The notes under the pieces: model-generated
The model's input: only the letters and a program-made list of their open reading frames with translations
Told to the model about the DNA's origin: nothing
Databases searched by the model: none
Shown here: in pieces, positions 11 through 50,922 of the stretch
How positions within the stretch are numbered: the first letter of the stretch is position 1
Layout of the letters: the number at the start of each line of letters is the position of its first letter
Source of the DNA: Escherichia phage AV106
Sequence record: OR352937.1
Strand: one strand, 5' to 3'
DNA: 50,922 nt
Translations under genes and position numbers: made by a program

Positions 11-427
11 CTATTTCGTTAAATCGTATATTGCCAGCTTGAATTGCTCAAATCCGTATGCGACGGCAGAGAATCCTCCGCGATCCCGAACCTTTTTGAG
101 AAACTCCCTTTGCTTATCGCTGACTGGTGATGCCTTTCCTTTGCCGGACTTATTAACCCGCTTTAGTTCGATAGCTGCAAACGGGTAGCGTGAGTTTATA
201 CCAATCAGAATAACAAAGTCTGACACGCCTTTGAGTAATCCAGCCTGTTCATCCCTTAGCGCCGACGTTATTGTTTTTTCACCTTCATTAACTGTGTGCC
301 AAAATAGAAGCTGAGGAAAATTGTATTTCAACCAGGATACGCAATCTACTTGATGAGCGTCCTCCTTTCTCGTGTCGCTAGGATCTCGCTCGTAAAACTC
401 TAAGTAATCGCCTTTGTCTGTAATCAT
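11..427 (-). CDS. VRR-NUC-type nuclease (PD-(D/E)xK fold)
   Basis: 138 aa; GVSDFVILIG...AAIELKRVN resembles the VRR-NUC D...ExK core; 4-nt overlap with the helicase ORF; stop codon lies inside a dyad motif copy. Confidence 0.55.
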   Translation of the reverse strand: MITDKGDYLEFYERDPSDTRKEDAHQVDCVSWLKYNFPQLLFWHTVNEGEKTITSALRDEQAGLLKGVSDFVILIGINSRYPFAAIELKRVNKSGKGKASPVSDKQREFLKKVRDRGGFSAVAYGFEQFKLAIYDLTK

Positions 428-2442
428 TCCGGGATATCCTCCATACCGAAGTCTTTGCGTGAAATAATATCTTCTTTCTTCTGGTTGCGTCTATGAGTAA
501 CACGTACCGGATGCGCTATATGATGAGAGTATTGCACGATCTTGATAGCGTTCTTCATTCCGATAAAGTAGCGACGCATTTTAGGATCTGACACGTGAGG
601 TAATACTCCTTTCGTTTTCCATAGCGTACCGCAGATCTTAGAGTCTGACTCAGGGAAGAACTTTTCATACGCCTTAAACTCATCACCCTCATCGTTAATA
701 AGCGTGTATTTGTATATCACACCTTTTTGGTTTTTGGTTAACGTAACCTCAAAATTCTTGACCTCGTACCAGTCATTCTTAGTGTACGCCTTACCGGATA
801 ACTTAAGGTTAGGATCGACAAGAGAAACATCGCAACAGCGACAGACTCGGGCCACAACATCATTCTCGGCACCGCACCCTTTAACAAGAATTTTCCCGGT
901 ACGTTCATCAACTTGGTCCTCGCAAATCTGAGAAGTCCAGAAATGATCGCAGCGTTCACCGTCGATAACGTTAACGCAACGGCGAGCATAGAAGCTATTT
1001 ACGCAACCACATTTAGGACACGTTTTCGGGTCTTTTCCGTTCTCGAATCGCTTCTGAAACTGAGCCTGCTCAAGTATAGGGTCAAAATAAAGCTGCCCCA
1101 ACTCGTCCATCGTACCAGCAAAATCCCATACCAGATGATCTTGCTTAACCATTCCTTCAGCAACCTGCCAGGATTTAAGAAGTCGCATACCCCTACCCAA
1201 AAGCTGAATCAGCAAGGTAAGAGATCCTATCTTGCGAAGTATTACACTAAAATCCCAATTTGGAACGTTAACGCCAGTAGTTAGCGCCATGACCTGAAAG
1301 GTATATTTAATTTTCCCAGCCCTCACATCATCAAGAATCTTCTTGCGCGTTTTAGTGTCTGTGTCGCCAGTAATAATTGCATATGTGCTTCCTGGTGGTA
1401 GTGCCGCAGCCGCCTCTTTGCAGTGACGCACCCCGGCGCATGTAATCAGAACTGCGTTACGCTCTTCAGCCTTTTTGGCAACCATTTGCATGATTCGCTG
1501 GGTAAGAGATTTATCATGAAGGATCTCATCTTCCATTGCCTTCATATCTTTCTCTGTGAAGTCCTGCACCCCATCCTCGCTTGATGCCTTAAATTTATCA
1601 AGATCGTAGTGAACTCCGTCCGTCGAGCCGAATATAGTCGGAACGACTGAGCCAAACTCAATAAGGTAGTTGGTGTCTATATCAGTAACGCGCTCACGCC
1701 AGAAGCCTAACGCCTTTGGATTCTCAACAAGAATAGGAACTACACCCCTAAATTCAGATCCAGTCATACCAAATATTCTAAGATCGTGACCGTGAACCTC
1801 TTTACAGCGTCGCATCATTTCCATGATTACGATCGTGTACTGACTGCGCTTAGTTCCAAGAAGAGGCTTTCCATCATTACCAATCAGAGGAGTATCACCG
1901 TCCATGATAATTTTCCCTTTCTCTCCCCGCATCTGTTCCATTGTTTCCTTTCCGTCTATGGCTTGCGCAAGGTCTTCCCAATCCACCTGGTGACATTCAT
2001 CTATCCCGATTACGTGAGGGACAAAATCAGCCAACTCATTATTTAAACCATTTGCAACAGTGCCCTCAGAGCCTACCACGATCGGGAAGTAGCAAGACTT
2101 GATTCCAAGTGACGCTGAGAATATAGAGTTAGTCACTCCGAAATTGTCGATCTCTTCACTATCCTGATCGACAATTTCACCCTGGCGTGCCAGCACAAGC
2201 ATTTTCAAGCCCATTTTTTGACACTGCTTTGCAACCATAGCAAAAATGATGGTCTTACCCGCCGATACTGACGCTTTAACAAAGAATGGATGCTCATAAT
2301 TTGATAGGCGTTTTGCGATCTCAGCATAAGCAACAACCTGGTACGGATACGGAACTACCTCACCAACAGTGAATCGTTCTTGAGTGCGTTTTATATAGTC
2401 CTCGCCAAGTAATGCGATTTGCTTTTTGATGTTAATTGTCAC
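424..2442 (-). CDS. SF2 DNA helicase (DECH box) with C-terminal Cys-rich zinc-ribbon-like region
   Basis: 672 aa; Walker A-like SAGKT, GIDECHQ (DExH box); C-terminal CPKCGC...CxxxxxxxxC cluster; GTG start. Confidence 0.7.
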   Translation of the reverse strand: MTINIKKQIALLGEDYIKRTQERFTVGEVVPYPYQVVAYAEIAKRLSNYEHPFFVKASVSAGKTIIFAMVAKQCQKMGLKMLVLARQGEIVDQDSEEIDNFGVTNSIFSASLGIKSCYFPIVVGSEGTVANGLNNELADFVPHVIGIDECHQVDWEDLAQAIDGKETMEQMRGEKGKIIMDGDTPLIGNDGKPLLGTKRSQYTIVIMEMMRRCKEVHGHDLRIFGMTGSEFRGVVPILVENPKALGFWRERVTDIDTNYLIEFGSVVPTIFGSTDGVHYDLDKFKASSEDGVQDFTEKDMKAMEDEILHDKSLTQRIMQMVAKKAEERNAVLITCAGVRHCKEAAAALPPGSTYAIITGDTDTKTRKKILDDVRAGKIKYTFQVMALTTGVNVPNWDFSVILRKIGSLTLLIQLLGRGMRLLKSWQVAEGMVKQDHLVWDFAGTMDELGQLYFDPILEQAQFQKRFENGKDPKTCPKCGCVNSFYARRCVNVIDGERCDHFWTSQICEDQVDERTGKILVKGCGAENDVVARVCRCCDVSLVDPNLKLSGKAYTKNDWYEVKNFEVTLTKNQKGVIYKYTLINDEGDEFKAYEKFFPESDSKICGTLWKTKGVLPHVSDPKMRRYFIGMKNAIKIVQYSHHIAHPVRVTHRRNQKKEDIISRKDFGMEDIPE

Positions 2443-37626: not shown

Positions 37627-37635
37627 TTTTAAATC

Positions 37636-37916: not shown

Positions 37917-38140
37917 TTTAGCACCTCGATCTTGTTGTCGCCGATTGAGTTTTCTACTACCGATTGCGGATCATCACCAGGAACGCGCATGTAAAAATTA
38001 CTCACCGCCGTGAAGTTCCATTGACCGCGCCACTTGAAATATAATCCGTTCTTTGCGCCTTTCGCGAAGTGAGTAGATTTAGCCGGGATCATGTGCCCGT
38101 TGACGCGGATTAGTTTGGTTAGGTTGCTGTAACGTGGCAT
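37913..38140 (-). CDS. Hypothetical protein
   Basis: 75 aa; RBS GAGGAA. Confidence 0.4.
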   Translation of the reverse strand: MPRYSNLTKLIRVNGHMIPAKSTHFAKGAKNGLYFKWRGQWNFTAVSNFYMRVPGDDPQSVVENSIGDNKIEVLK

Positions 38141-38449: not shown

Positions 38450-38495
38450 CTATAGCAAGATACCCCGATCCGTTTTTAACAATTCGTGCTATTTG
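38450..38495 (-). promoter_or_regulatory. Dyad-motif promoter
   Basis: AATAGCACGAATTGTTAAAAAC, 22 bp, TATAGT (preceded by TGc) in the loop of GGGGTA...TACCCC. Confidence 0.55.
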
Positions 38496-38956: not shown

Positions 38957-38958
38957 GA

Positions 38959-39153
38959 TTATGCCTCAGCAAAGTAAGTGTTAAATCCTTTGAGTTTGTA
39001 GTCGCTACCTACGCGCACCACGTTCCAGGCAAGTCCCGAGTGATATGCAACCATATCCTCAAGGTCGATCGTGATTTCGGTTCCTTTCTTGAACAGACCC
39101 TTTTCATGAGTTGAGTCGCGCTGAACAACCACTACGTCAATTTGCGTTTCCAT
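38959..39153 (-). CDS. Hypothetical small protein
   Basis: Start moved to ATG (METQIDVV) behind RBS GAGGAAAAGAAG; the track's N-terminal extension covers the promoter. Confidence 0.4.
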   Translation of the reverse strand: METQIDVVVVQRDSTHEKGLFKKGTEITIDLEDMVAYHSGLAWNVVRVGSDYKLKGFNTYFAEA

Positions 39154-39185
39154 CTTCTTTTCCTCTGTATCGTGTCGATGAGAAG

Positions 39186-39231
39186 ATAATACCCGATCCG
39201 CTCGACCGGGCTTTAACAAAAAGTGCTATTC
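39186..39231 (-). promoter_or_regulatory. Dyad-motif promoter
   Basis: AATAGCACTTTTTGTTAAAGC, 22 bp, TATTAT; upstream of ORF 38959..39153. Confidence 0.55.
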
Positions 39232-39486
39232 CATCAAAGTGAAGCAGCGAATTTTATTTGGCTTGAATAGGAATAGCTGGATGCCTTGCACCTTACCAAG
39301 ACTGATCATCTCTACGCCAAACTGTTTACGCACATACCGGACCAGCTCATCGGCTGGCGAACTCATCTGTAGTCCGAGGTGATGGAAACCGACAAACCCG
39401 TATGTTTCGGGGTTAAGCTGGAATGCCTCACCTGGATTGAGTTGCATCAATACACCTTTCAGGGAGTCATGCTTAATTTTGCTCAT
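39226..39486 (-). CDS. Hypothetical protein
   Basis: 86 aa; RBS GAGGAGAAG. Confidence 0.4.
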   Translation of the reverse strand: MSKIKHDSLKGVLMQLNPGEAFQLNPETYGFVGFHHLGLQMSSPADELVRYVRKQFGVEMISLGKVQGIQLFLFKPNKIRCFTLME

Positions 39487-39488
39487 GA

Positions 39489-40064
39489 TTACTTCTCCTC
39501 ATCCAGTAAATGTGAGCGGAATTGCTCGACCAGCTTATTGAGATCGGACACCGAGATATTGCTACCTTCAAAATCCCTCAAATCGATTTTGAACGCCTCA
39601 ACCTTCGCATTGAACACGTCGGCTATGCTCTTTCGCTTCCTACCTCTCTTGCCCTGTTTAGCTTCGCCTATGGCCTTCTCTGCTTCCTCGCCTTCGAGTT
39701 CGGTTATGAATATCGTCACCCCGTCAACCTGATCGCGGTTGATTCGCACAGATACGGCCTTATTGTGCGCCTTGAGCATGTGGCGCTTGATGATATTGGA
39801 CACGTACGACGCGGTGAGTCTCTCGAGCAACCAGGCTGATCGAGATGTGTACTCGTTAACGACTGCCTCATCGATCTGGTCATCGTTAAGTTCCACGCCC
39901 TGAGTAGCCTTTACAATCTCGGCCTGCTCATTGACGTACACTTCAACCATTTGCTTTCCAGTGACTGAGAAGTCATTCCCTGATTGGTGGATTTCAATCG
40001 CCTTTCGAATATAGTCCGGCAGGTTGAGTTCAAATTCTGTCACTTCTTTAAGCTGAGTTTTCAC
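39489..40064 (-). CDS. Hypothetical protein, first gene of the minus-strand early array
   Basis: 191 aa; GTG start with RBS GAGGT; C-terminal basic patch KQGKRGRKRK; adjacent to the repeat-rich control region. Confidence 0.4.
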   Translation of the reverse strand: MKTQLKEVTEFELNLPDYIRKAIEIHQSGNDFSVTGKQMVEVYVNEQAEIVKATQGVELNDDQIDEAVVNEYTSRSAWLLERLTASYVSNIIKRHMLKAHNKAVSVRINRDQVDGVTIFITELEGEEAEKAIGEAKQGKRGRKRKSIADVFNAKVEAFKIDLRDFEGSNISVSDLNKLVEQFRSHLLDEEK

Positions 40065-40111
40065 TTGTCTATACCTCGTTGTCTATGGGTGTAACTTTCA
40101 ACTTCGAAAAA

Positions 40112-40141
40112 CATGTTACAGCTACAACGTCAGGCGCGTCA
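40112..40141 (-). promoter_or_regulatory. Candidate sigma70-like promoter for the first minus-strand early gene
   Basis: Minus strand TTGACG, 18-bp spacer, TAACAT, about 40 nt upstream of the GTG start at 40064. Confidence 0.35.
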
Positions 40142-40348
40142 ATGTCTATAGCTGCATTTTTTATTTTTGTAACCAGTGCAACCGATGCAACCGACTTTTT
40201 CTATAAAAGTAAGCACATCTATTTATGCGCGCGGAATAGTATGTTTTTTATACTATGCATCACGAAATATATGCCACCATCAAAAAATGCGGTTGCACCT
40301 ATTACGCCGATTACATACCAATATATAATATAATAAATAAATAAATAT

Positions 40349-40427
40349 ATATTATCTATCTTATTATTATATATAGATATTTTATTATATATAGGCCCAT
40401 CGACTCGCTGGCCATTTTGTAACACCC
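40349..40427. repeat. AT-rich control module, copy B
   Basis: Same two anchor sequences (13 bp and 14 bp identical) with the same 52-bp spacing as copy A. Confidence 0.6.
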
Positions 40428-40677
40428 CTGATGGTATACAACTATTACGACAATTACAACTACCGCATAGACGAATAGCACGTTTTGCTAAAAATGGAGA
40501 TGACTACAAGGCGAACCGGGTAACACTAGATCCTCCCTCTCACAATCATTGCATTCCAAGCAACAATCACATCAACAGTTGCACATCATGCAACAATCAC
40601 ATTTCATCATTCGGGATCAATCAGGATCGCAATTATTCCAGATATTCCATTGCTGGTGGAATAATGAGCAACTATTG

Positions 40678-40724
40678 GAATAGCATTTTTTGCTAACGAC
40701 TTGGTCAGGCTGGCAGTGTATGAT
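40678..40724 (+). promoter_or_regulatory. Dyad-motif promoter for the C5-methyltransferase gene
   Basis: AATAGCATTTTTTGCTAACG, 23 bp, TATGAT, then leader CATCAACCAATCAGTAGGAGA. Confidence 0.5.
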
Positions 40725-40757
40725 TCATCACATCAACCAATCAGTAGGAGATTTGCA

Positions 40758-41462
40758 ATGAAATTAATCTGGTCGCTATTCGACGGTTCCGGTCTTGCTG
40801 GTCATGAACTGGCTAAGCAAGGTCACAAGGTGATGTGCTTCAACTTTGACGGAGCCGATCACGGGGATTATGCAAAGTACAATGCCCGGGTGGAGCATCC
40901 GAACATTGAGTATGTGAACGTGTTCATTGACGCAGCGTTTGAGCGTGATGCTATCGCTGGCGTGTATGGCAAGCCGGATTTCATTATGGCCTTCCCGCCG
41001 TGCACTGACCTGGCTGTTAGTGGTGCCGCTCACTTCGCAAGAAAGCGTGAACGCGATCCGTTATTCCAGGAGAAGGCTGTTGCCACCGCCCGGATTACTG
41101 CAAATATTGGCGACGCCCTGGGCGTGACTTACATCATTGAGAATCCGGTTAGCGTCCTGTCATCTGCCTGGAGAAAACCAAATCACTCCTTCAATCCCTG
41201 GGAGTATGGCGGCTATCTTCCTGAGAATGACTCACACCCCTGGTTCCCTATGTATATTGCGCCGCGCGATGCTTACCCGAAGAAAACTTGTCTGTGGACC
41301 TCTGACGATTTTGTCATGCCTGAAAGAAAACCTGTAAGCCTACCTGACGGGTACTCTGCACAGCACAGTAAGCTAGGCGGCAAATCTGCCAAAACTAAGT
41401 TGATACGATCCCTGTCGCCGCGTGGATTTTTCAAAGCGATCGCAAATAGCACTTTTTGTTAA
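40758..41462 (+). CDS. DNA (cytosine-5) methyltransferase, short Dcm-like
   Basis: Start moved to ATG behind a dyad-motif promoter and leader; motif I LFDGSGLAG (FxGxG), motif IV FPPC (catalytic Pro-Cys), motif VI IENPV (ENV-like). Confidence 0.55.
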   Translation: MKLIWSLFDGSGLAGHELAKQGHKVMCFNFDGADHGDYAKYNARVEHPNIEYVNVFIDAAFERDAIAGVYGKPDFIMAFPPCTDLAVSGAAHFARKRERDPLFQEKAVATARITANIGDALGVTYIIENPVSVLSSAWRKPNHSFNPWEYGGYLPENDSHPWFPMYIAPRDAYPKKTCLWTSDDFVMPERKPVSLPDGYSAQHSKLGGKSAKTKLIRSLSPRGFFKAIANSTFC

Positions 41463-41489
41463 AACTCGATCGGTGTGATTTGGCATAAT
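41445..41489 (+). promoter_or_regulatory. Dyad-motif promoter
   Basis: AATAGCACTTTTTGTTAAAAC, 22 bp, CATAAT; overlaps the 3' end of the methyltransferase ORF. Confidence 0.55.
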
Positions 41490-41522
41490 TACCTCATCGA
41501 AACGAGATTGAGGAAAAACAAA

Positions 41523-41708
41523 ATGGCACGTCGCATCACTAAAGACCTTAAAGTTCTGAACAAAGAAAACGTAGTTAAAATTCTGGTTATTTGGGGGTAC
41601 AACGAAGAATCAGCAAAGCAGAAGGTAGAAGCGGGTTACGATCTGGCTGTCAAAGCGATGCCTAACGACGACGCAAAAGGCATTGCAAACTATGTATCAT
41701 TCTTTTAA
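41523..41708 (+). CDS. Hypothetical small protein
   Basis: Start moved to ATG (MARRITKDL) after dyad motif, CATAAT and RBS GAGGAAAAA. Confidence 0.4.
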   Translation: MARRITKDLKVLNKENVVKILVIWGYNEESAKQKVEAGYDLAVKAMPNDDAKGIANYVSFF

Positions 41709-41723
41709 TTAACGGGCTAACAA

Positions 41724-41909
41724 ATGAAAACGAAATTAGTGCATAAATCAGAAATCAAGATAGGCGACACTGTGATTCACAACGGAGAGCTTAGAACTGT
41801 TGGTAAGGAGTCAATAACCAAAGATGAATTTATGGGGTTATTGTTGTTCGGCGACTCTTATCGCTTGGGTTACAAAATGGTTGAGCTTGTTGAGGAAGTA
41901 AAATTCTAA
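41724..41909 (+). CDS. Hypothetical small protein
   Basis: 61 aa. Confidence 0.35.
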   Translation: MKTKLVHKSEIKIGDTVIHNGELRTVGKESITKDEFMGLLLFGDSYRLGYKMVELVEEVKF

Positions 41910-41953
41910 ATAGCACGAATTGCTAAACGCCCCGAGGGGAATCGGGGTATAGT
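41908..41953 (+). promoter_or_regulatory. Dyad-motif promoter
   Basis: AATAGCACGAATTGCTAAACG, 22 bp, TATAGT in the loop of CCCCGA...TCGGGG, then leader CATCAACCAATCAGGAGA. Confidence 0.55.
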
Positions 41954-41984
41954 GAACACATCAACCAATCAGGAGAATCGCCAG

Positions 41985-42215
41985 ATGGCAATCAAACATC
42001 CCGGATTAAAGAAAGCAATCCAGCGAGCAAATGACGAGGGATTTATTGTATATCGCACACATTACGGTCACATGGGTGGACTTAAAGAGCATCATACAAA
42101 GGTTGAGCTTGTGGACTTGTGGGAGGATTACGATACATTCCAGTACATCGCCACGTCTGACGTAGAGGCGCAAGTGAAATACATCAATGACACTATTGAT
42201 AGCTTCAGAGGGTAA
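41985..42215 (+). CDS. Hypothetical protein
   Basis: Start moved to ATG (MAIKHPGL) behind leader AACCAATCAGGAGAATCGCCAG; dyad motif and TATAGT upstream. Confidence 0.45.
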   Translation: MAIKHPGLKKAIQRANDEGFIVYRTHYGHMGGLKEHHTKVELVDLWEDYDTFQYIATSDVEAQVKYINDTIDSFRG

Positions 42216-42219
42216 TTAT

Positions 42220-42591
42220 ATGTTTAAGCATTTCACAGATCTGGACTTCTCAGCCAGCACAGCAATCCAGACTGACGAGAAAGAAAGCGTAGCGATCGAG
42301 AACATCGCGCGCAAGATTTACAATAAGCAAGAGAAGGCCGTGAGAGCAGCTCTAACCGCCTATTATGGTGTAAGTGATGCAATGGAGTGCGTGAACCGAG
42401 TAACGCGCGTGGTGGACCATTCTGGCGTTTCTCGCTTCGTCGATAAAGATACTGGCGAGACAATCATTCAGCTAAACAATCCATCAATGCGTACTGAGTT
42501 AGGAAATATTGCACTGTGGGGAGTTGCTAACTATTCAATCACCGTTAACTCATGTGTAGCGGATCGCGTTAAGGAGGCATTGTATGAGTGA
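42220..42591 (+). CDS. Hypothetical protein
   Basis: Start moved to ATG (MFKHFTDL) behind RBS AGAGGG. Confidence 0.4.
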   Translation: MFKHFTDLDFSASTAIQTDEKESVAIENIARKIYNKQEKAVRAALTAYYGVSDAMECVNRVTRVVDHSGVSRFVDKDTGETIIQLNNPSMRTELGNIALWGVANYSITVNSCVADRVKEALYE

Positions 42592-42798
42592 TAATATTTA
42601 CCGCGTAGTGGCGATCTCACGTAAGACTCAGAAAAAAGTAATTGCCTACATGGGGAATAGCGCCATTGAAGCTACAGACGCTTTCGAATTGCTAAAGAAT
42701 AACGAATGATTTATGAACACGTTCCGAGTTCGACTTGAGCGCCTTGAACCTGTTATTATTGACGAATCGAGAAAGCTATCCTGACTGGTTAGGGGGGG

Positions 42799-43122
42799 AT
42801 GATGAACCACACTTACAAAATCACAACGAAATCACCGAAGATTAACGGAAGTACGGTAGTCGCACTGAATAACGCGGCAGCAATCCACGAAAAAAACATC
42901 ATGGAGCGCGTTAAGGCGGCGGTGGGCCGATTCTACGGAATAAACGCTGATATTGCCGACAGCAAACGACTGTTCAAATACGTGCCAGGCCATCCGTACA
43001 GTCGGATGATCGACATTAAGCATGATAAAGAACTGGTTAGAATCGGATCGCTTAGCATTGACGAGTTCGACCATAACATTAACCTTGTAACGGCGTATCA
43101 AACTTGGGACGGTAAAAAATGA
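42799..43122 (+). CDS. Hypothetical protein
   Basis: 107 aa; RBS GGGGGGATG. Confidence 0.4.
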   Translation: MMNHTYKITTKSPKINGSTVVALNNAAAIHEKNIMERVKAAVGRFYGINADIADSKRLFKYVPGHPYSRMIDIKHDKELVRIGSLSIDEFDHNINLVTAYQTWDGKK

Positions 43123-43260
43123 TTTATATTCACACTTTCTATACTGGCAAATTTAACAGAGTAAAAAATGTTCGCGTTTACGATAGCCACCAAAAAGCAA
43201 TGATGCAGAAAGTAGTTCTAGGTGGAACAATCAAAGAGTGCAAAGTAATTTCTGAGTACT

Positions 43261-43306
43261 GATAGCACGAATAGCTAAAGACAATAAATAGGGAGTAAGG
43301 TATATT
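43261..43306 (+). promoter_or_regulatory. Dyad-motif promoter
   Basis: GATAGCACGAATAGCTAAAG, 23 bp, TATATT. Confidence 0.5.
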
Positions 43307-43338
43307 ACTCACACACCAAACAAACAAAGGAATTAAAA

Positions 43339-43563
43339 ATGAGCATTAAAGTTGAGAATATCATCAAGCACCTGAACGCGAAAGGCCGTGTAGTTATAAA
43401 AATGGATAAGTCTTCCGGCTTTATTTCAATGACGGTAACTAAGACTCGTAACGGTAATAACGTTATCGGCAGCACGCCAGGCTCGCGCTTAGTAAATGCA
43501 ACAGATGCCGATGTTCGTGCTACGCTTGAAGCAAACTCAATTTATATTAATTCGTGGAGTTAA
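43339..43563 (+). CDS. Hypothetical protein
   Basis: 74 aa; dyad motif and TATATT upstream. Confidence 0.4.
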   Translation: MSIKVENIIKHLNAKGRVVIKMDKSSGFISMTVTKTRNGNNVIGSTPGSRLVNATDADVRATLEANSIYINSWS

Positions 43564-43566
43564 TTA

Positions 43567-43776
43567 ATGGAGCAGGATAATTTTTGGACCCGTTATTTTG
43601 CAGCGCTTGATGCTGGACTTAGTGCCGAATGGTGCATCAAGGTTGCATATAAAGAAATAACACTTGATGAGGCTCTTGGCGATATGGATATGAATGCTGA
43701 AAGCGAATACGATCCTAACTTTGAATTACCTAGTGATGATATTAATGAAGACGACGACGATTATACTCCCTGGTAA
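43567..43776 (+). CDS. Hypothetical acidic protein
   Basis: 69 aa; very acidic C-terminus (EDDDDYTPW). Confidence 0.4.
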   Translation: MEQDNFWTRYFAALDAGLSAEWCIKVAYKEITLDEALGDMDMNAESEYDPNFELPSDDINEDDDDYTPW

Positions 43777-43820
43777 ATAGCACGATTTGTTAATATTGCC
43801 GTAAGGTCATTTGATAAAGT
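43776..43820 (+). promoter_or_regulatory. Dyad-motif promoter
   Basis: AATAGCACGATTTGTTAAT, 22 bp, TAAAGT (preceded by TGa) in the loop of AAGGTCA...TGACCTT, then leader AACCAATCAGGAATT. Confidence 0.55.
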
Positions 43821-43856
43821 GACCTTATTCAAGATAACCAATCAGGAATTAACGAA

Positions 43857-44273
43857 ATGAAATCCATCAAACTGAAATGTACTCACGCAGATAAAATCAC
43901 AGGATTTGAAGTAAACAACATATACAAAGGTCGTGAGCGCTATGATGGCACTCGCGAAGTAAAATTAAAATGCGGGAAGTATTTAAAACTTGAAAAGCAT
44001 GATGAATTACAGATTCACGGATCTGATGAAATTTTCTTCGCGAAGTTCACTGAGTTGAAAACAAAGACGCTCAAGTGCACCGGGCTTGACCATCGCAACC
44101 CAATGAAAAAATCATTCAAAGTTGGCAAGCGTTACCAGGTTGAAAGCGGTCGCGCTCTCGGTGGCGTAGCTGGTTACATCTTTGATGAAGATGGTTGTCG
44201 CTGGACCTTATTTCGCGAAGAGGTTGGTTTTAGTATCGCAGACGGCACAACCTTTGAGGCCAAATACTTATAA
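43857..44273 (+). CDS. Hypothetical protein
   Basis: 138 aa; leader AACCAATCAGGAATTAACGAA; dyad motif and TAAAGT upstream. Confidence 0.45.
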   Translation: MKSIKLKCTHADKITGFEVNNIYKGRERYDGTREVKLKCGKYLKLEKHDELQIHGSDEIFFAKFTELKTKTLKCTGLDHRNPMKKSFKVGKRYQVESGRALGGVAGYIFDEDGCRWTLFREEVGFSIADGTTFEAKYL

Positions 44274-44275
44274 CC

Positions 44276-44320
44276 AATAGCACTTTTTGCAAAACGCGTG
44301 TACCATTGGCGGTGTATCAT
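44276..44320 (+). promoter_or_regulatory. Dyad-motif promoter
   Basis: AATAGCACTTTTTGCAAAACG, 22 bp, TATCAT in the loop of CGGTGTA...TACACCG. Confidence 0.55.
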
Positions 44321-44349
44321 TTACACCGTCAACTAAGGAGTTTATTGTG

Positions 44350-45918
44350 ATGTTTAATATTAAGCCAAAACTGAATTACCAACAGATTATTGAGATCGCC
44401 AATAGCACTGGAGTTAATCCGGTGGCGATCGCAATTCGTGAAAACAGCTATGGTGACTCAGTTTCATTTTGGCAAGATCCGATCGATATCAATAGCGGCA
44501 ACGATAAGTTCCCTCTGATTTCGTTAGGTGGCGATAACCTGGTATTCGAATATGCAAAAGCAAAGGCCGAGTCTGTACAGTTCCCTGTTTCGTCTGCGTA
44601 CGCTCATTTCATTGGGTGCATATCAGCCGCGATGCTCGGGAAGTTTTGGGTGCAATATCACGGAGAAGAACAACCAACCGCTCTTTACATGGTAATCAGC
44701 CAGCCACCGTCAACAGGTAAATCTGCGATTAACTCCGCAGCGATTACGCCTATGCGCGCAGAGATTCAGCGACTGAATGAAGAGCGAAAAAAGGAACGTA
44801 TCCGTTTAACCAGTCAGCTACGTCAGGTCGAGAAGGAAATTAAAAACGACCCGAAGGGTAACACGACGGCAGCGCTATACGAGGACAAGGAAAAACTGGA
44901 AGAAAAGATCAAGAAGATGGCTGATATTGTTTTCGCTGTATCAGATCCTACACCTGAAGGTCTTGCGAAGGTGGCGGCTGTTCAAGGTCACTTCTCAGTA
45001 ATCTCTGATGAGGCGACAGCAATCAACACATTGCTCGGCCTGACTTATGGCGGCTCTGATAAGAAATCAAACAGCGAACTTATCCTTAAGGCGTGGGATA
45101 AAAACCATATGGAGGTCGCGCGTTCAAACCAAGACAACAACTTATCTCTTTGCCCGGTCGGTTCGATCTGCGTCATTGCGCAGGATGAAACAATCAAGGG
45201 TATCATGGACGCAGGCCAGCGAGGCATCGGCGTATCTGAGCGTTTCCTTTTAGTTCGTGAGGAGCCGCTTTTAGGTACTCGTATTCTTTGTGATGAAAAT
45301 GGTGATGCGCTGTATAAGGAAGTCGATCGAGGATTGGTGAGTAAATATTATCGACTCGTGCACAACATCATGAAAGAGGATAACGTTGTTCTCTCTGTAA
45401 GCCGTAATGCTATGCGTGAATTAAACCTTGCGCGTCAGGCTATGGAACCGGATTTCGCCGCAGGTGGGAAATACTCTCACTCAATGCTACGCGGTCATCT
45501 CGGCAAGTTCGATAAGCACGCCTTGCGTATTGCTTCAGTTCTCCACACGATCAAAAATTGGGATGGTGAATCACCGAACCGTTCCAACCGTGAGATTGAC
45601 CTTGAAACGATGCAGGAAGCAATCATGATCTTCAATGAGCTTTCCAGGACTTATCTGTCGTCTGCCAGCGCTGCCGGGTATGCAGGTGATGAGGCTGAAT
45701 CTCGTAAGCTGATTGATGTTATCACTGAGATCGCGAAGAAGAACAAAGGCCGCGCACCTATTCATAGCATCGTTGCAAAGTGCCGGAACGTTACTCCGTT
45801 CAACGGTCAACAGAAAGTATCTGAGAGAATAGATAGCCTGCTGATCACGCTCGAAGAGATGAACTACACTTGCCGCATTGATGATATTGTTTTCATCAAT
45901 CCTAGACTGATGGGTTAA
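44350..45918 (+). CDS. P-loop NTPase, candidate replication or helicase-loader ATPase
   Basis: Start moved to ATG behind RBS AAGGAG; Walker A-like QPPSTGKSA; long Lys/Glu-rich helical segment. Confidence 0.4.
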   Translation: MFNIKPKLNYQQIIEIANSTGVNPVAIAIRENSYGDSVSFWQDPIDINSGNDKFPLISLGGDNLVFEYAKAKAESVQFPVSSAYAHFIGCISAAMLGKFWVQYHGEEQPTALYMVISQPPSTGKSAINSAAITPMRAEIQRLNEERKKERIRLTSQLRQVEKEIKNDPKGNTTAALYEDKEKLEEKIKKMADIVFAVSDPTPEGLAKVAAVQGHFSVISDEATAINTLLGLTYGGSDKKSNSELILKAWDKNHMEVARSNQDNNLSLCPVGSICVIAQDETIKGIMDAGQRGIGVSERFLLVREEPLLGTRILCDENGDALYKEVDRGLVSKYYRLVHNIMKEDNVVLSVSRNAMRELNLARQAMEPDFAAGGKYSHSMLRGHLGKFDKHALRIASVLHTIKNWDGESPNRSNREIDLETMQEAIMIFNELSRTYLSSASAAGYAGDEAESRKLIDVITEIAKKNKGRAPIHSIVAKCRNVTPFNGQQKVSERIDSLLITLEEMNYTCRIDDIVFINPRLMG

Positions 45919-45922
45919 TAAT

Positions 45923-46330
45923 ATGCTTCTTCTTTTAGATCTGTTCAGGTTCTGCGAAGGTTACGACAAATACACTCGACAGCACATAGCGAAATTTATA
46001 TACGCCCACAAGGAAAGTGAGCGTTTTGCTAAGGCTGCTGGAATGACTCGCCGTGAATTTACAAGCGCGCTATCTAAGGAGTTTTGCGCTCGTTGCGTGA
46101 CTGAGGGTTACTTAGATCGCAATGATGGAGTTTACTGGTGCAAGGGAAAGATTAAGCGCCCGGTAATGATGAAGCTGATGTGTATTGATGGCTACAACAA
46201 TCGGTATACGTGGGAAATGATGCACATTGGAGAGATGAGTGATGAAGATTTGTTTGGCGAACGTAGAAACATTGATAGATCGGAACGTCGAATTGTGCGC
46301 AAGGCTCCAGCTTACGAAAGAAGAATTTGA
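45923..46330 (+). CDS. Hypothetical protein
   Basis: 135 aa; several Cys (CxxC-like). Confidence 0.35.
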   Translation: MLLLLDLFRFCEGYDKYTRQHIAKFIYAHKESERFAKAAGMTRREFTSALSKEFCARCVTEGYLDRNDGVYWCKGKIKRPVMMKLMCIDGYNNRYTWEMMHIGEMSDEDLFGERRNIDRSERRIVRKAPAYERRI

Positions 46331-46442
46331 GCAAGGGTTGTTGAGTCTGTTACTCACTTCAATGAGGGCCAGTAACGAAAGCGAGCATAATCTTTGCGAT
46401 AAGGAGGGGGAGTTACTCCTTCATGTGAAAAGGTACAAATAA

Positions 46443-46470
46443 GAAAGGAGGCTTAGCCTCCTTTTTTTCC
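46443..46470. terminator. Bidirectional terminator between the convergent plus early array and lysis cassette
   Basis: AGGAGGC-tta-GCCTCCT followed by TTTTTTT. Confidence 0.6.
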
Positions 46471-46857
46471 GTTCTTACGAAGTGAAAAATAAATCATCAA
46501 CAGGCCAATAAAAACGAGAGTCCACCCTACAATTGCATCGTACCAGTTCCCCGGTTTTGTTACCGTGATGCTTTCAGCGTTAACCGTGTTAGCCTGAATG
46601 GTTGACACTTCTACAGACTTCTTGACGGATGAGTCAATCTTGCCAATATTTGAATCACTCACCTTCACTTCTCGCTTATCGTCGGCCTTTGCAGTAACTC
46701 CCGCCAGTTGCTTCGTGTTCTCAGCGCCAACCTGCGCAGTAACATCCGGGGAGTCAGAAAGTAAACCGCTCAGAGCAGATGCCGTCGAGCAACCGGATAG
46801 AGAAATAACACCAACAGCCACTGCAATCGCAATGCACGTTTTCTTCAGTTTCATCAT
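46453..46857 (-). CDS. Unimolecular spanin (lipoprotein with C-terminal transmembrane anchor)
   Basis: 134 aa; N-terminal signal peptide with lipobox LSGC and C-terminal helix [19 protein letters not shown], the topology described for T1 gp11; directly downstream of the endolysin. Confidence 0.6.
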
Positions 46858-47342
46858 AATTCCTTAACGCAATACGCGTATTCTTCAGCGCGTCGGTTCT
46901 TTAGTCCTCTAGACACTTCGCGCTTTTTGGTTTTTGGGTTGTAGTAGTATACCCATCGCCATAACTGATTGCACGCTTCCTTGTGCTTACTCTGATTTAT
47001 TAGCTTAAGCATTGTAGAAGATCCGAACGCGCCAGTACCGACGTTGAAAGTGAAGCTGTACAGTGACGCGCGCATCGTTACCGGAATATCAACATTCACC
47101 TTTTTGTCAACGTATCGCTGAGCGACTCCGATATGTTTTATCAGCAATGCATCGCATTCTCGCTTAGTGTATTTCTTGCCAGGTATGACGTCCGGCCCGG
47201 TTATTCCGCTGCATACTGTAGGGACTCCGGCTATATCGTAATACACCTCGTATTCTATCCCTTCGATTCGTTCCAGTAGTGTAGGTGTCAACGTCAAAGC
47301 GGCCCCGATCGATGCGCCTATAACGTTATTTTTTAAGCTCAT
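46854..47342 (-). CDS. SAR endolysin (phage lysozyme with signal-anchor-release N-terminus)
   Basis: 162 aa; Gly/Ala-rich weakly hydrophobic N-terminus [17 protein letters not shown] followed by the conserved lysozyme core (EGxxY...VPTVCSG...YSFTFNVG); resembles P21-type R lysozymes; RBS GGAGATA. Confidence 0.75.
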
Positions 47343-47557
47343 TATCTCCCCCTGATCTTAAGCGCCTTATTTAGATCGCCATCGTTTAACGCTTCCTGAA
47401 TCGCCTTGCTATCACGATACTTCCAGTATGCTCCCCAAGCACCAAAAAGCAGAAAGCAAATGAATGTAGCGCCAGCAATGTAAAGTTGCCCGGTAGCGGC
47501 CCCGACTAATGAAGCGCCGCCCGTGCTGGACGTCGCAGCGGTTAAAAATTCTTTCAT
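47342..47557 (-). CDS. Holin, pinholin-like with two transmembrane segments
   Basis: Start moved to ATG (MKEFLTAA) behind RBS GGTGAG; TMD1 Gly/Ala-rich (SAR-like), TMD2 [14 protein letters not shown], charged C-terminus; directly upstream of the SAR endolysin. Confidence 0.55.
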
Positions 47558-47675
47558 AATCTCACCATATATTTTTTGAACAAGTGAGTCGATTTTAACC
47601 TTCAAATTTATTTTATACAACGCAAAAAGGCCAGCATGTAAATCATGCCAGCCCGTAAGGTTATGAATGATATTG

Positions 47676-47852
47676 TTAATCTAGCTCAATAAATTCCAGG
47701 TAATGACCATTCAGAGGAGCTTGGATTGTTGAACCTCTACCATCGTAAATCTCAAACAATCCACCTCCGAAATCATAACCAACACTATAGATCTGATTTA
47801 CGCGGAATGGAAGCGTTTTGGAATCATTTCGGATGCACTTAACTCGTTTCAT
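47676..47852 (-). CDS. Hypothetical small protein (58 aa, absent from the ORF track)
   Basis: ATG behind RBS AAAGAGGG, with a degenerate dyad motif and TATATT 22 bp apart upstream; translates MKRVKCIRNDSKTLPFRVNQIYSVGYDFGGGLFEIYDGRGSTIQAPLNGHYLEFIELD. Confidence 0.35.
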   Translation of the reverse strand: MKRVKCIRNDSKTLPFRVNQIYSVGYDFGGGLFEIYDGRGSTIQAPLNGHYLEFIELD

Positions 47853-47881
47853 GAAATACCCTCTTTGTTTTCTATGTGGTC

Positions 47882-47924
47882 AATATACCCGAATCCCTTC
47901 GGGAATTTTTGGCGATTAGTGCGA
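47882..47924 (-). promoter_or_regulatory. Degenerate dyad-motif promoter upstream of small ORF 47676..47852
   Basis: GATCGCACTAATCGCCAAAAA, 22 bp, TATATT; hairpin CCCGAA...TTCGGG. Confidence 0.4.
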
Positions 47925-49067
47925 TCCTGTCATTTCTGGACGATAGATGAATCGACCGATTTCACCAAACTGTTTATCGTAAACGATTACCGCCGCCTGG
48001 CGATATGAGCGCCACCCGCCTCGCGCTGCGTATGCATCTTTCGCGCCTAACTGCCCGTGAACCTCATCAATACCTAACGAGTGCTCAGTGATTGTCTGAT
48101 GATGCCAGTGTCCGCTATGCGTGTACACGTATTTGCTTTCACCAAAATCTGCGCGGAAATCTGCTGCCATAGCTGCGAGTCGAGTCTCTGCTTTTTTCAT
48201 CGTGTGACCGTGAGTATATCCCAGCAAAGTATTTCCCCAGCGAGTCTTATGTAGAACCATAGGGCTTACGTCAACGAATACTCTTGGCTCGTCTTCATAG
48301 TATGCAGCCATTGCGGCGCGCAACCAAATCATCCCGGCCTGGTCGTGGTTTCCTTCGACAACCTGAACTTCGACCTCTTTGTGTTTAGTCAGCATTTTGT
48401 CGATAGCTCGTCGCACCGATCGAATAGCCACATGCACCAATTTCGCATATCGTGAATCCTGATCCAGAACGTGACCACTTGCCGGGGTAACAGCATCAAG
48501 ACCGTCTGAGTGAAGGAAGTCGCCGCCGATTAACAGAACAGCCTTCTCTGCGTTCGGGGCAATATCGATCGCGTAGTTAAAGAAGTCATTCAGCACTTTT
48601 TCCGCTACGTCTGTAGAGTAGTTCTCTCCGCATTCATGCTTGTGAGCAAGCGCGCCAATGTGAAGATCGAACACCGGGTAGAGTGCTAGCTTGCCAATAG
48701 CGGTTGTAAGCCCTTGCGAGGTGAGTAGCTCAGTTGGTTTTGCTCGCGGCAAGTCTTCACAGAATGCAATACGCGCTGCTTCCATCATTGCAGCAATCTT
48801 CTCTCGGTCCTGATCGGTCTTAACCCATCGCACTACCTCGGTCCCATCGCCGCGAATCATCGTTGATGTGCCTTTTACCATGAATCCTTCCGGTACGTTC
48901 TTAGCAACATGCTCGTTACCGTGGAAGTGACCTTCTTTTGCAAGTTTGGCGTGACGCGCTTCAACTGTGCGGATGTGCATACCGTACTTTTCCGCGATCT
49001 CGCGAAGTGTAAGGCCGCTCATGCGCTCTTCGATAAGTTGCTCGGTAGTGATTTTAGCTTGTGACAT
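47916..49067 (-). CDS. Calcineurin-like metallophosphoesterase with N-terminal HTH domain
   Basis: 383 aa; N-terminal LTLREIAEKYGMHIRTVEARHAKL (HTH-like); phosphoesterase motifs GDFLHSD, GNHD, GHWHH. Confidence 0.6.
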   Translation of the reverse strand: MSQAKITTEQLIEERMSGLTLREIAEKYGMHIRTVEARHAKLAKEGHFHGNEHVAKNVPEGFMVKGTSTMIRGDGTEVVRWVKTDQDREKIAAMMEAARIAFCEDLPRAKPTELLTSQGLTTAIGKLALYPVFDLHIGALAHKHECGENYSTDVAEKVLNDFFNYAIDIAPNAEKAVLLIGGDFLHSDGLDAVTPASGHVLDQDSRYAKLVHVAIRSVRRAIDKMLTKHKEVEVQVVEGNHDQAGMIWLRAAMAAYYEDEPRVFVDVSPMVLHKTRWGNTLLGYTHGHTMKKAETRLAAMAADFRADFGESKYVYTHSGHWHHQTITEHSLGIDEVHGQLGAKDAYAARGGWRSYRQAAVIVYDKQFGEIGRFIYRPEMTGSH

Positions 49068-49145
49068 ATTTTAATCCTTACATGATAATGAAATACATTA
49101 CTGAAAATGAAATTAGCGGTGTTAATACTACAGCAAAATAAAGAT

Positions 49146-49547
49146 TCATGCCACAGCCTTTAACCAGAATCCTAGATCTGACGATTTAAACTCAACCAGC
49201 TTTCCGTCAACCTCAAGCATCATACTGTTTCTACCAGGTGAGTAATAACCTATATGCAACTCCTGATCGATCCCTATGGTACACAGCACGTTTGCGAAGT
49301 CAGGAGGCAACCAATCAGAGAAAGGTATTTTCTTAACCTGCTTCTTTCCGATCCATATGGTCTGGTAATCGTCTTCGTTAATGTTTAAGCCTGGAAGGCT
49401 TGTTGTTCTTTGCTGCTTTTCGTTCTCTCTCAATTCTCTTTCCCTCTTCACGATAAAACTCAAGTGACGGAGTTGCTGGCACTCTATGCATTTTTCTCGG
49501 CATATCTTCCATAAATGAAATCTTGCCATTTGAGATAATGCTAACAT
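49146..49547 (-). CDS. Hypothetical protein (start uncertain)
   Basis: 133 aa in the track; overlaps ORF 49378..49650 in another frame and a dyad-like sequence lies inside the overlap. Confidence 0.3.
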   Translation of the reverse strand: MLALSQMARFHLWKICREKCIECQQLRHLSFIVKRERELRENEKQQRTTSLPGLNINEDDYQTIWIGKKQVKKIPFSDWLPPDFANVLCTIGIDQELHIGYYSPGRNSMMLEVDGKLVEFKSSDLGFWLKAVA

Positions 49548-49627
49548 CCTTTATATAGAAATATTTCGCTATTAGTGCTATATCGTCTGAGATTCCGCAT
49601 TCCTTCGCGTGCTCCCAAACCTCTCGT

Positions 49628-49837
49628 TTACCTTGTTTTTTTATCAGCATTGGTTAGTTTCTCCACGCTTTCAATAAAACACTCAACATCTTTGACTGAG
49701 CAGAGGTAATAAGCCATTTTAAGGAAGTTCATAGCAATATCCCAATCAAAGTTACCGCCTTTCTTGTCAGTGATATGAACAGCCATTTTTGCGGACTGTT
49801 GAGCGATATTGAAAAAGTTTGCGTTAATGCGTGCCAT
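49628..49837 (-). CDS. Hypothetical protein
   Basis: 69 aa; RBS GAGGAATAAGAAG; dyad motif and TATAGT upstream. Confidence 0.4.
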   Translation of the reverse strand: MARINANFFNIAQQSAKMAVHITDKKGGNFDWDIAMNFLKMAYYLCSVKDVECFIESVEKLTNADKKTR

Positions 49838-49869
49838 CTTCTTATTCCTCGTTTCGTTTTGATGAAATA

Positions 49870-49915
49870 ACTATACCCGACTTTCGCCGGGTAGTTTTAG
49901 CAATTAGTGCTGTAA
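49870..49915 (-). promoter_or_regulatory. Dyad-motif promoter
   Basis: TACAGCACTAATTGCTAAAAC, 22 bp, TATAGT in the loop of ACCCGG...CGGGT. Confidence 0.55.
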
Positions 49916-50155
49916 GATCGTGTCGGATTTAAGTTCTTCTACGTCTTTCTGAATGATTGAAGGCCAATGCTCGATGTGTTTATTCTTTATCTCATCGAAC
50001 GACATATCAAGAGAACTTGTAAACTCCCATAAATCGCAACCAATAACATCTTTAGTTAATCCGTTTCGCTCCATAATTTCGCAGCACGTAGCGCGATAAA
50101 GAAGCCATAACCCTTGATCAGTTAATTTAACAGGAACCATTTTTTCGCTCATCAT
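49904..50155 (-). CDS. Hypothetical protein
   Basis: 83 aa; ATGA overlap with the methyltransferase gene. Confidence 0.4.
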   Translation of the reverse strand: MMSEKMVPVKLTDQGLWLLYRATCCEIMERNGLTKDVIGCDLWEFTSSLDMSFDEIKNKHIEHWPSIIQKDVEELKSDTILQH

Positions 50156-50865
50156 ACTTTTCTCACCTTTGCTCGTTTGTTTTTAACGGAAGGACAAATA
50201 CTTGTGATTGGGATGTAGTGAGTCTGTTGCGTCTCACCTTCTTTAAGTTCGCGCATAATAAAAATAACCGAACCTTTGTTGTTGCCGTCTACGGCTTTTC
50301 CAGTTTCACCGGATATGAAAGCTAGACGACCGGATCGTGCGTATTCATTGCCGTCAATATCCTCAGTCAAATCAGCTTCAATCCAGATGATTTCAGCCGC
50401 GTGCTGTCGAGCCTCAGTAAACCACGCCGTCGAGTTATCGGCAGGTAAAAGAATATCGATCTGGTTGTTGTGCTCCATTTCCTCAATCGCTTTCTTGACG
50501 AATATATCAGGTCGACTGTAAGGAGGATTTAACCATACGTGCTTATTTTTACCCCACCAACGTTTTAAGCAGTTTGTTTCCTGGGAATAAAACTTCTCGC
50601 AAACTTTATTTTCTTCGCTTGCCGCAGCGTCGAGGTCATATTTTCCGTAGCGACCCTCAAGGTATGCGATAACCTCGCGTGGGGTTGACCATAAATCACG
50701 AACTGCGTCAGGTGTATTGGTTCCCTTGTATCGACGTCCTGAAATCTCTTTGCAGGTTGGCGTTTTCAATGCTTGATAATAAACTCCTGATGCTATTGCT
50801 TCGCGAGTGAATGAGCACCCAGTTTCTGCAAAGTCGATTGTTTCGATATCATTAAAGTCTTTCAT
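50152..50865 (-). CDS. DNA N6-adenine methyltransferase (Dam-like, NPPY motif)
   Basis: 237 aa; catalytic WLNPPYSR and upstream DLDAAAS AdoMet-binding-like motif; RBS GAGAGGA. Confidence 0.7.
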   Translation of the reverse strand: MKDFNDIETIDFAETGCSFTREAIASGVYYQALKTPTCKEISGRRYKGTNTPDAVRDLWSTPREVIAYLEGRYGKYDLDAAASEENKVCEKFYSQETNCLKRWWGKNKHVWLNPPYSRPDIFVKKAIEEMEHNNQIDILLPADNSTAWFTEARQHAAEIIWIEADLTEDIDGNEYARSGRLAFISGETGKAVDGNNKGSVIFIMRELKEGETQQTHYIPITSICPSVKNKRAKVRKV

Positions 50866-50922
50866 TTTTAATCCTCTCGTTTCGGTGAGATAATAATGCC
50901 AGATTCCATTCCGGCAGTTTTA

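Follow-up and report, generated by a model that had tools for sequence, protein, structure and literature searches.

Phage T1 encodes a solitary DNA adenine methylase, T1 Dam (M.EcoT1Dam; PF05869, TIGR01712), a protein of 237 amino acids with an NPPY motif, whose biochemistry was described by Scherzer 1987 and Schneider-Scherzer 1990, as cited in PMC10470545. The enzyme shares no sequence relationship with E. coli Dam or T4 Dam, and digestion with DpnI and MboI has shown that it methylates N6 of adenine in GATC (PMC10470545). T1 DNA from a dam- host is sensitive to DpnI, the GATC sites of T1 are fully methylated by T1 Dam and only partly by host Dam, and T1 deleted for dam, when raised in a dam- host, gives viable virions in which GATC is unmethylated (PMC10470545). 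The same deletion lowers the burst size from ~52 to ~32 with no restriction system present (PMC10470545).

Dcm-like cytosine methylases have been described in the Drexlerviridae phages KarlJaspers and K42, and the minimal family to which they belong is very widespread, with 1517 phage records. The K42 product raises the 5-methylcytosine content of msDNA and is the trigger of retron Ec86/Eco1, while a quadruple mutant (C82, E128, K175, K176) is inactive. That the phage family targets CCWGG has been assumed from E. coli Dcm, and mutagenesis of the msDNA site is the one line of support. Host Dcm in MG1655 gives no visible msDNA methylation and no retron activation, and the phage and host enzymes may therefore differ in site or substrate.

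Solitary Dam and Dcm pairs that represent the same strategy occur in Dhillonvirus, Vequintavirinae and the Klebsiella Slopekvirus phages KP15 and KP27, and KP15 DNA has been reported to be DpnI-sensitive and EcoRII-resistant. In JLBYU60 a Dcm-like gene and a PF05869-type Dam lie within 1 kb of each other, and phage nomo carries an adenine methyltransferase together with a “Dcm”. These other enterobacterial pairs sit in different genomic modules from those of Escherichia phage AV106, where the two genes are on opposite strands and ~9 kb apart.

The two methyltransferase genes of AV106

The window, which is the whole stretch of 50,922 nucleotides analysed here, is a complete and circularly permuted T1-like genome (Tunavirus, Drexlerviridae), and in a blastn comparison its positions 1 and 50922 meet at T1 38966/38967. 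The two methyltransferase ORFs located by the first-pass annotation are both present and intact, ORF1 on the plus strand and ORF2, or dam, on the minus strand (Table 1). Both are of types already known, and the finding is real but ordinary.

Table 1. Methyltransferase genes of AV106, their motifs and adjoining features (window coordinates)
Feature	Position	Strand	Basis or remark
VRR-NUC (PD-(D/E)xK) nuclease, 138 aa	11..427	-	PF08774 2.8e-13, above cutoff; GVSDF...AIELK motif
Helicase gene, upstream of VRR-NUC gene	424..2442	-	PHROG 16
Non-coding gap, 694 bp	40065..40757		ORF map; separates divergent minus- and plus-strand gene arrays
ORF1 ribosome-binding site AGGAG, 7 nt before ATG	40746..40750	+	direct sequence reading
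ORF1, solitary Dcm-like C5-cytosine DNA methyltransferase, 234 aa	40758..41462	+	stop codon included
ORF1 motif I FDGSG, residues 8-12, AdoMet binding	40779..40793	+	sequence; homologue conservation
ORF1 motif IV PPC, residues 80-82, catalytic Cys82	40995..41003	+	conservation; aligns with K42/Bas06 C82
ORF1 motif VI ENP, residues 128-130, Glu128	41139..41147	+	conservation; aligns with K42 E128
ORF1 Lys175-Lys176, equivalent to K42 K175/K176 (assigned to substrate binding)	41280..41285	+	BLASTP alignment
83-aa ORF, PHROG 2676 (unknown function), ATG overlapping dam stop (ATGA)	49904..50155	-	ORF map
ORF2 dam, T1-type GATC N6-adenine DNA methyltransferase, 237 aa	50152..50865	-	profiles, T1 identity; stop codon included
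dam motif IV NPPY, residues 113-116	50518..50529	-	sequence; conserved in KarlJaspers Dam
dam DLDAAAS, residues 77-83, candidate degenerate AdoMet-binding motif I	50617..50637	-	sequence, inferred; DIDAAAS in KarlJaspers Dam
dam ribosome-binding site GAGAGGA, upstream of ATG	50872..50878	-	direct sequence reading

The general statement that T1-type phages encode a Dam methylase applies directly to AV106, as ORF2 is the orthologue of T1 Dam, with 97.9% protein identity and 5 amino-acid differences, none of apparent functional consequence. ORF2 matches PF05869 (1.9e-68, 229.8 bits; cutoff 28.1), the TIGR01712 equivalog (1.1e-70, 236.4 bits; cutoff 97.05) and the PADLOC “orphan methyltransferase” profile PDLC03721 (1.4e-169), and it has the same neighbours as the T1 gene, with VRR-NUC upstream and the overlapping 83-aa ORF downstream. 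From its identity to T1 Dam, ORF2 would be expected to methylate N6 of adenine in GATC. The NPPY motif read in the first pass is confirmed, and the AdoMet-binding-like motif mentioned alongside it is probably DLDAAAS. A sequence search of PDB chains with the ORF2 protein found no relative, and the single-sequence AlphaFold (AF2) model has a pLDDT of 37.9, too low for use. A non-specific Dam was also considered and dropped, since the paper on Hia5 places that enzyme with E. coli and T4 Dam rather than in the T1-Dam family.

ORF1 belongs to PHROG 757 (1.2e-83), the family of the KarlJaspers/K42 enzyme (236 aa, against 234 aa for ORF1), and BLASTP aligns it with KarlJaspers bas06_0055, the product of a 711-bp gene, at 55% identity over 229 residues (E 3e-87). 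C82, E128, K175 and K176 of K42 Dcm are all identical in ORF1 and carry the same numbers. The FxGxG, PPC and ENP motifs claimed for ORF1 are present, in the C5-methyltransferase order I (FxGxG), IV (Pro-Cys) and VI (ENV-type Glu). Across 36 homologues G10, S11, G12, P80, C82, E128, N129, P130 and K175 are invariant, while F8, D9, P81 and K176 are at least 90% conserved; with NPPY intact in ORF2, neither protein lacks its catalytic residues. A start at the upstream TTG 40701 was rejected, as the N-termini of homologues align instead with the ATG at 40758.

Searches against methyltransferase family profiles, which the first-pass annotation had proposed, assigned ORF2 to PF05869 and TIGR01712 and ORF1 to PHROG 757, but ORF1 itself has no NCBIfam match and no PF00145 match at E<=1 in Pfam. 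PF00145 is matched by 20 of the 36 homologues, only across motifs I-IV (profile positions 4-94), and the three homologues checked score 28.5, 25.4 and 24.7 bits, all above the 22-bit cutoff. C5-methyltransferases also have motifs VIII (QxRxR), IX and X, and their target-recognition domain falls between VIII and IX. Neither QxRxR nor GNxV is recognisable in the ORF1 sequence; the conserved family segments RDAYPKKTCLW and IRSL(S/T)PRGF may be counterparts of these later motifs. With a length of 234 aa, the target-recognition region of ORF1 must be very small. ORF1 has the three-dimensional fold of C5-methyltransferases, and a sequence search of PDB chains with the protein and its family profile gave no match. 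Its likeness to the catalytic domain of eukaryotic DNMT3A/DNMT3B, at 13-16% identity and without the regulatory domains, is one of fold only and no evidence of shared CpG specificity or descent. The assignment of ORF1 as a solitary C5-cytosine methyltransferase is supported.

With E. coli Dcm / M.EcoRII (canonical PF00145, CCWGG), ORF1 has the logic of motifs I, IV and VI in common and presumably also the product, 5-methylcytosine, and the site; however, E. coli Dcm has 472 aa, and ORF1 has no vsr partner. When the family profile of ORF1 was compared with the profile of E. coli Dcm, motif IV was the only part to align (E 0.074), and on this ground the possibility that ORF1 is a captured host dcm was rejected. 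ORF1 is an accessory gene that T1 itself does not have (blastn comparison). Its orthologues in DELF2 and ADB-2 are broken by a nonsense mutation and a frameshift, respectively, indicating that ORF1 is dispensable.

Gene neighbourhoods and methylation sites

ORF1 had been described as the first gene of the plus-strand array. It is the first sizeable gene to the right of the 694-bp non-coding gap, although tiny upstream ORFs are possible, and a promoter and terminator scan around ORF1 performed no better than shuffled sequences. Around it lie genes for small proteins whose function is unknown. The KarlJaspers gene is likewise solitary among small genes of this kind, but is internal to its array where ORF1 heads its own.

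As the genome is circularly permuted, dam has the VRR-NUC gene as its immediate upstream neighbour, 67 bp away on the same strand across the junction. The earlier claim that no endonuclease-like gene lies adjacent therefore holds for a cognate restriction enzyme, but not for nucleases in general. Searches with PHROG, Pfam and PADLOC found no restriction-enzyme signature in the genes flanking ORF1 and dam, the 83-aa ORF after dam has no Pfam or PADLOC match and no nuclease signature, and the absence of a cognate restriction enzyme is supported for both methyltransferases. A stop/start overlap at 424..427 couples translation of the VRR-NUC gene to that of the helicase gene. The VRR-NUC gene also stands upstream of dam in T1 and KarlJaspers. 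Phage VRR-NUC proteins are Holliday-junction or structure-specific nucleases. The gene dam itself is part of a helicase, VRR-NUC and exonuclease module beside recombination genes of the RecE/Erf type.

The genome contains 260 GATC sites, a mild under-representation (observed/expected 0.82, z -4.4), and 89 CCWGG sites, close to the expected frequency. Many 6-bp palindromes are almost purged, with AAGCTT absent against 19.6 expected and GGATCC found once against 10.2 expected. GATC shows no clustering across the genome (2-9 sites per kb), and in the gap in front of ORF1 GATC occurs 3 times, close to the average for the genome, and CCWGG not at all. The proposal that methylation might control the dyads or the origin is consequently unsupported. 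Within the Tunavirus copies of ORF1 there are 6 CCWGG against 0.83 expected, a ~7-fold excess; tested for conservation across the family, it proved limited to the Tunavirus copies, and for this reason it is kept out of the main explanation below.

Methylation, restriction and competing explanations

We consider it likely that AV106 represents a T1-like genome in which a T1 Dam orthologue and a Dcm-like cytosine methylase, both solitary, fully mark the progeny DNA and protect it against restriction. With AdoMet as methyl donor, Dam would methylate GATC at N6 of adenine. ORF1, through Cys82 of PPC and Glu128 of ENP, would form 5-methylcytosine, most probably at CCWGG by analogy with the enzymes described above; given the 45% divergence from the KarlJaspers enzyme, this specificity is one that we infer. 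Both phage enzymes would outpace the host enzymes on replicating phage DNA and mark it more completely, and through this faster and fuller methylation progeny genomes would leave the cell with both of the E. coli “self” patterns. In the next host the marked progeny would presumably be protected against type II enzymes that cut GATC and CCWGG. Dam would additionally increase the burst size, and the cost of carrying the cytosine methylase would be its detection by retron Ec86/Eco1.

An anti-restriction benefit is the conventional textbook reading of dual methylation and the one offered in the first pass, and here it is supported only in part. The retention of GATC and CCWGG against the purging of hexamers and the full marking of GATC by T1 Dam are consistent with it, whereas the BASEL, burst-size and retron evidence weaken it as a complete account. 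BASEL saw no connection between methyltransferase content and resistance to restriction, and the majority of Drexlerviridae are highly sensitive to it. Also counting against the favoured explanation are the mild under-representation of GATC, the dispensability of ORF1 and its failure to match PF00145. The BASEL result lends some weight to the alternative that the methyltransferases serve the metabolism of phage DNA, through avoidance of MutH nicking or in replication or packaging, with protection from restriction as an incidental effect. The burst of dam-deleted T1 is ~40% lower without restriction, even with host Dam (PMC10470545), and the module in which dam resides is one of DNA processing and recombination genes. 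The alternative nevertheless offers no explanation for the cytosine methylase, a gene missing from T1 and disrupted in DELF2 and ADB-2, and GATC, which clusters at no locus, gives no hint of an origin- or pac-type switch. We regard it as possible, but not probable.

A second alternative concerns ORF1 alone, whose target or chemistry might be unlike those of host Dcm: another or shorter site, hairpin or single-stranded DNA, tRNA (cf. Dnmt2) or the use of carboxy-SAM. The minimal recognition region of a protein closer to DNMT3 than to bacterial enzymes would suit such a difference, as would a profile comparison with E. coli Dcm that falls short of significance and the behaviour of MG1655, in which msDNA 5mC is low in the presence of host Dcm and the retron stays silent until the phage enzyme is expressed. 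However, when the K42 enzyme was expressed, LC-MS of the msDNA detected 5mC and no other adduct, mutation of either C of the msDNA CCTGG ended defence, and CCWGG is about as frequent in the AV106 genome as expected, which together make a different target or chemistry rather unlikely. Distinctly doubtful, too, is a narrower proposal that ORF1 has a substrate preference of its own, for hairpin or replicating DNA or for a site only overlapping CCWGG, with the intragenic CCWGG excess reflecting self-targeting or autoregulation; such a preference would account for an Ec86 msDNA that is left unmethylated by host Dcm and for a retron that nevertheless responds to the phage enzyme.

That dam and the adjoining VRR-NUC gene form a phage-borne restriction-modification pair, the nuclease attacking unmethylated DNA of the host or a competitor and Dam protecting the phage, is suggested by their close, conserved arrangement but is highly improbable. 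Dam-deleted T1 virions are viable with GATC unmethylated (PMC10470545), which largely refutes such a pair, since phage DNA without the mark is evidently not killed by a GATC-directed nuclease of the phage itself; moreover, E. coli DNA is itself Dam-methylated, so that the mark could not tell host from phage, and the nuclease is tied to the helicase gene and has no PADLOC match.

The favoured explanation, full marking of progeny DNA by two solitary enzymes, predicts that DpnI would cut AV106 DNA and that MboI and EcoRII would not, whatever the growth host. It further predicts that AV106 would be restricted by retron Ec86/Eco1, with escape mutants in ORF1, as in phage K42. This retron is native to E. 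coli B/BL21, and the broken ORF1 copies of DELF2 and ADB-2 fit counter-selection by it.

Gene identity and genome setting

Dozens of Tunavirus and Drexlerviridae genomes, among them ADB-2, CLB_P3, SH6, Sfin-3 and T1, match both ends of the region bounded by the two methyltransferase genes at 90-99% identity by megablast. The window is collinear with phage T1 (MK213796) by whole-window blastn, and its bases 1 and 50922 abut at T1 positions 38966/38967. The window thus represents an entire T1-like genome in circularly permuted form, in which genes at opposite ends are neighbours. The presence of one C5-cytosine and one N6-adenine methyltransferase gene, as reported in the first-pass annotation, was confirmed with three small corrections. 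Since relatives carry annotated copies of both genes and experiments on homologues have been published, the finding is already known.

Coordinates and supporting evidence for the methyltransferase genes and the nuclease gene beside dam
Feature	Coordinates	Strand	Evidence
ORF1	40758..41462	+	PHROG 757; motifs I, IV and VI; AlphaFold/Foldseek
ORF2 (dam)	50152..50865	-	237-aa product; profile matches and identity to T1 Dam
VRR-NUC nuclease gene	11-427	-	138 aa; PF08774, 2.8e-13; PD-(D/E)xK, GVSDF...AIELK

ORF2 is T1 Dam. Its product is recognised by Pfam PF05869 ‘Dam’ (1.9e-68), by the equivalog TIGR01712 ‘phage N-6-adenine-methyltransferase’ of NCBIfam (1.1e-70), by PHROG 111 and, from end to end, by PADLOC PDLC03721 ‘orphan methyltransferase’ (1.4e-169). 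It shares 97.9% identity with T1 Dam and 66% with the ‘Dam-like’ protein of the BASEL phage KarlJaspers. NPPY occupies residues 113-116, the ATG is preceded by a GAGAGGA ribosome-binding site, and the AdoMet-binding-like motif mentioned earlier is most plausibly DLDAAAS at residues 77-83. A structure model run without an alignment gave a pLDDT of 37.9; the family is present in 1896 phage records. The biochemistry of T1 Dam dates from 1987 and 1990, as cited in PMC10470545. The same source reports that T1 DNA from a dam- host is DpnI-sensitive, that GATC is unmethylated in a CRISPR-made T1 dam deletion from such a host, that host Dam modifies T1 DNA only partly, and that the deletion lowers the burst size from ~52 to ~32 with no restriction system present.

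ORF1 encodes a ‘Dcm-like’ C5-methyltransferase of minimal size. Its product has no Pfam or NCBIfam match at E<=1, and the original call, made from motifs, therefore needed testing. It matches PHROG 757 ‘DNA methyltransferase’ at 1.2e-83, with homologues in 1517 phage records and 4863 protein clusters. Across 36 aligned homologues, the invariant positions are G10, S11 and G12 in motif I (FDGSG), P80 and C82 in motif IV (PPC), and E128, N129 and P130 in motif VI (ENP); conservation of F8, D9 and P81 reaches at least 90%. PF00145 is touched by 20 of the 36 relatives, and its gathering cutoff is exceeded in all three that were checked, only over profile positions 4-94, which span motifs I-IV. The AlphaFold model built on this alignment is confident (pLDDT 89.5), and its top 47 Foldseek matches are DNMT3A/3B catalytic domains. 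That ORF1 itself falls below the Pfam threshold is the first of the corrections. Capture of a host gene was rejected, as profiles of the ORF1 family and E. coli Dcm align over motif IV alone (E 0.074).

The cytosine methylase, retron Ec86 and possible gene loss

Work on K42, a KarlJaspers-like Drexlerviridae phage, provides a functional comparison. All four of its mutants escaping retron Ec86 map to a 711-bp dcm gene, whose expression alone activates the retron and raises 5mC in the msDNA as measured by LC-MS, and a C82A/E128A/K175A/K176A mutant is inert (bioRxiv 10.1101/2023.08.16.553469). KarlJaspers (MZ501090) likewise has a gene of 711 bp, and its annotation reads ‘Dcm-like C5 cytosine methyltransferase’. 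The product of that gene shares 55% identity with ORF1 (E 3e-87), and all four of the residues mutated in the K42 enzyme align in ORF1 with the same numbering. By analogy with K42, an ORF1-type cytosine methylase would be a liability against retron Ec86. The CCWGG specificity given to the phage enzyme was carried over from E. coli Dcm, its sole support being mutation of CCTGG in the msDNA stem. MG1655 has its own Dcm, yet its msDNA shows little methylation until the phage enzyme is added; the two enzymes may therefore act on different sites or substrates.

ORF1 is an accessory gene. T1 has no trace of it by tblastn, which is another of the corrections. The orthologue in CLB_P3 is intact and 99% identical, that of DELF2 (L006 560-1264) has an in-frame stop at codon 62, and that of ADB-2 (L007 485-1188) has a 1-nt deletion at nt 359. 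Both breaks may reflect either natural loss, through counter-selection of the retron type, or sequencing errors in those records. Window positions 38493-42219 have no nucleotide counterpart in T1 (L001); this block, located at the point where the two termini of the linear T1 map join, comprises the first minus-strand genes, the 694-bp gap, and ORF1 with three small genes downstream.

Inside ORF1, itself the putative CCWGG methylase gene, a 231-bp stretch (41009-41239) holds six CCWGG sites. When synonymous codons were resampled with the phage's own codon usage, 0.83 sites were expected, and six or more arose in 0 of 20,000 resamples and 1 of 3,000 in a second run (P 0.0003). Five sites each are present in the CLB_P3 and ISF001 copies (Tunavirus), and the more distant homologues in Sasha, JLBYU60, Bas01, Bas06, tonnikala and nomo carry 0-2, in line with expectation; the excess is thus real, though restricted to one clade.

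Neighbouring genes and candidate nucleases

Both methyltransferase genes are solitary. The non-coding gap on the left of ORF1 separates it from a divergent gene for a 191-aa protein, and small DUF/PHROG proteins lie to its right, all of unknown function. An 83-aa ORF follows dam, overlapping its stop codon. The methyltransferases had been described as having no endonuclease-like partner adjacent. Taken literally this is incorrect, as joining the two ends of the window places the VRR-NUC gene 67 bp upstream of dam, an adjacency invisible in a linear reading of the window. That gene overlaps the stop of the upstream helicase gene, to which it is translationally linked, and viral VRR-NUC proteins are junction-resolving enzymes. 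A GATC-directed phage nuclease is excluded, since T1 particles with fully unmethylated GATC are viable. The host's own DNA also carries Dam methylation, so such a mark could not tell it apart from phage DNA.

Unrelated groups of E. coli phages (Dhillonvirus, Vequintavirinae) also combine a Dcm-like gene of PHROG 757 with one for an adenine methyltransferase, as in JLBYU60 (L011 2980-5046) and nomo (L014 376-3729), where both genes lie within 1-2 kb and often beside HNH homing endonucleases. Three T1 HNH endonuclease genes (T1 5465-5959, 42028-42510 and 46085-46624) are absent from the window. A 383-aa protein at 47916-49067(-) matches PHROG 704 ‘DNA repair exonuclease’ (7e-157), with weak helix-turn-helix matches at its N-terminus and weak calcineurin-like phosphoesterase matches, all below Pfam thresholds.

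Roles proposed for methylation

Protection against host restriction, the conventional interpretation, finds only partial support in published experiments. The genome keeps 260 GATC and 89 CCWGG sites, while many hexamer palindromes are nearly purged (observed/expected: AAGCTT 0/19.6, CAGCTG 2/13.5, GGCGCC 1/11, GGATCC 1/10.2, CTGCAG 1/8.5, GAATTC 1/7.3; CCGCGG, TACGTA and CGGCCG all 0), a pattern that fits this interpretation. DNA of related Klebsiella phages is DpnI-sensitive and EcoRII-resistant, which by analogy would fit as well. Against anti-restriction as the whole story, the BASEL study found most Drexlerviridae very restriction-sensitive and ‘no simple pattern’ between methyltransferase genes and restriction resistance; the reduced burst size of T1 without dam, which is independent of restriction, the retron liability and the accessory nature of ORF1 argue in the same direction. 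The alternative that methylation regulates the dyads or the origin finds no support, the 694-bp gap having three GATC and no CCWGG sites and GATC density being flat at 2-9 per kb. Elsewhere, eight CCWGG sites fall within ~0.9 kb among small minus-strand early genes (37056-37977), a cluster of marginal significance given the genome-wide average of 1.75 per kb.
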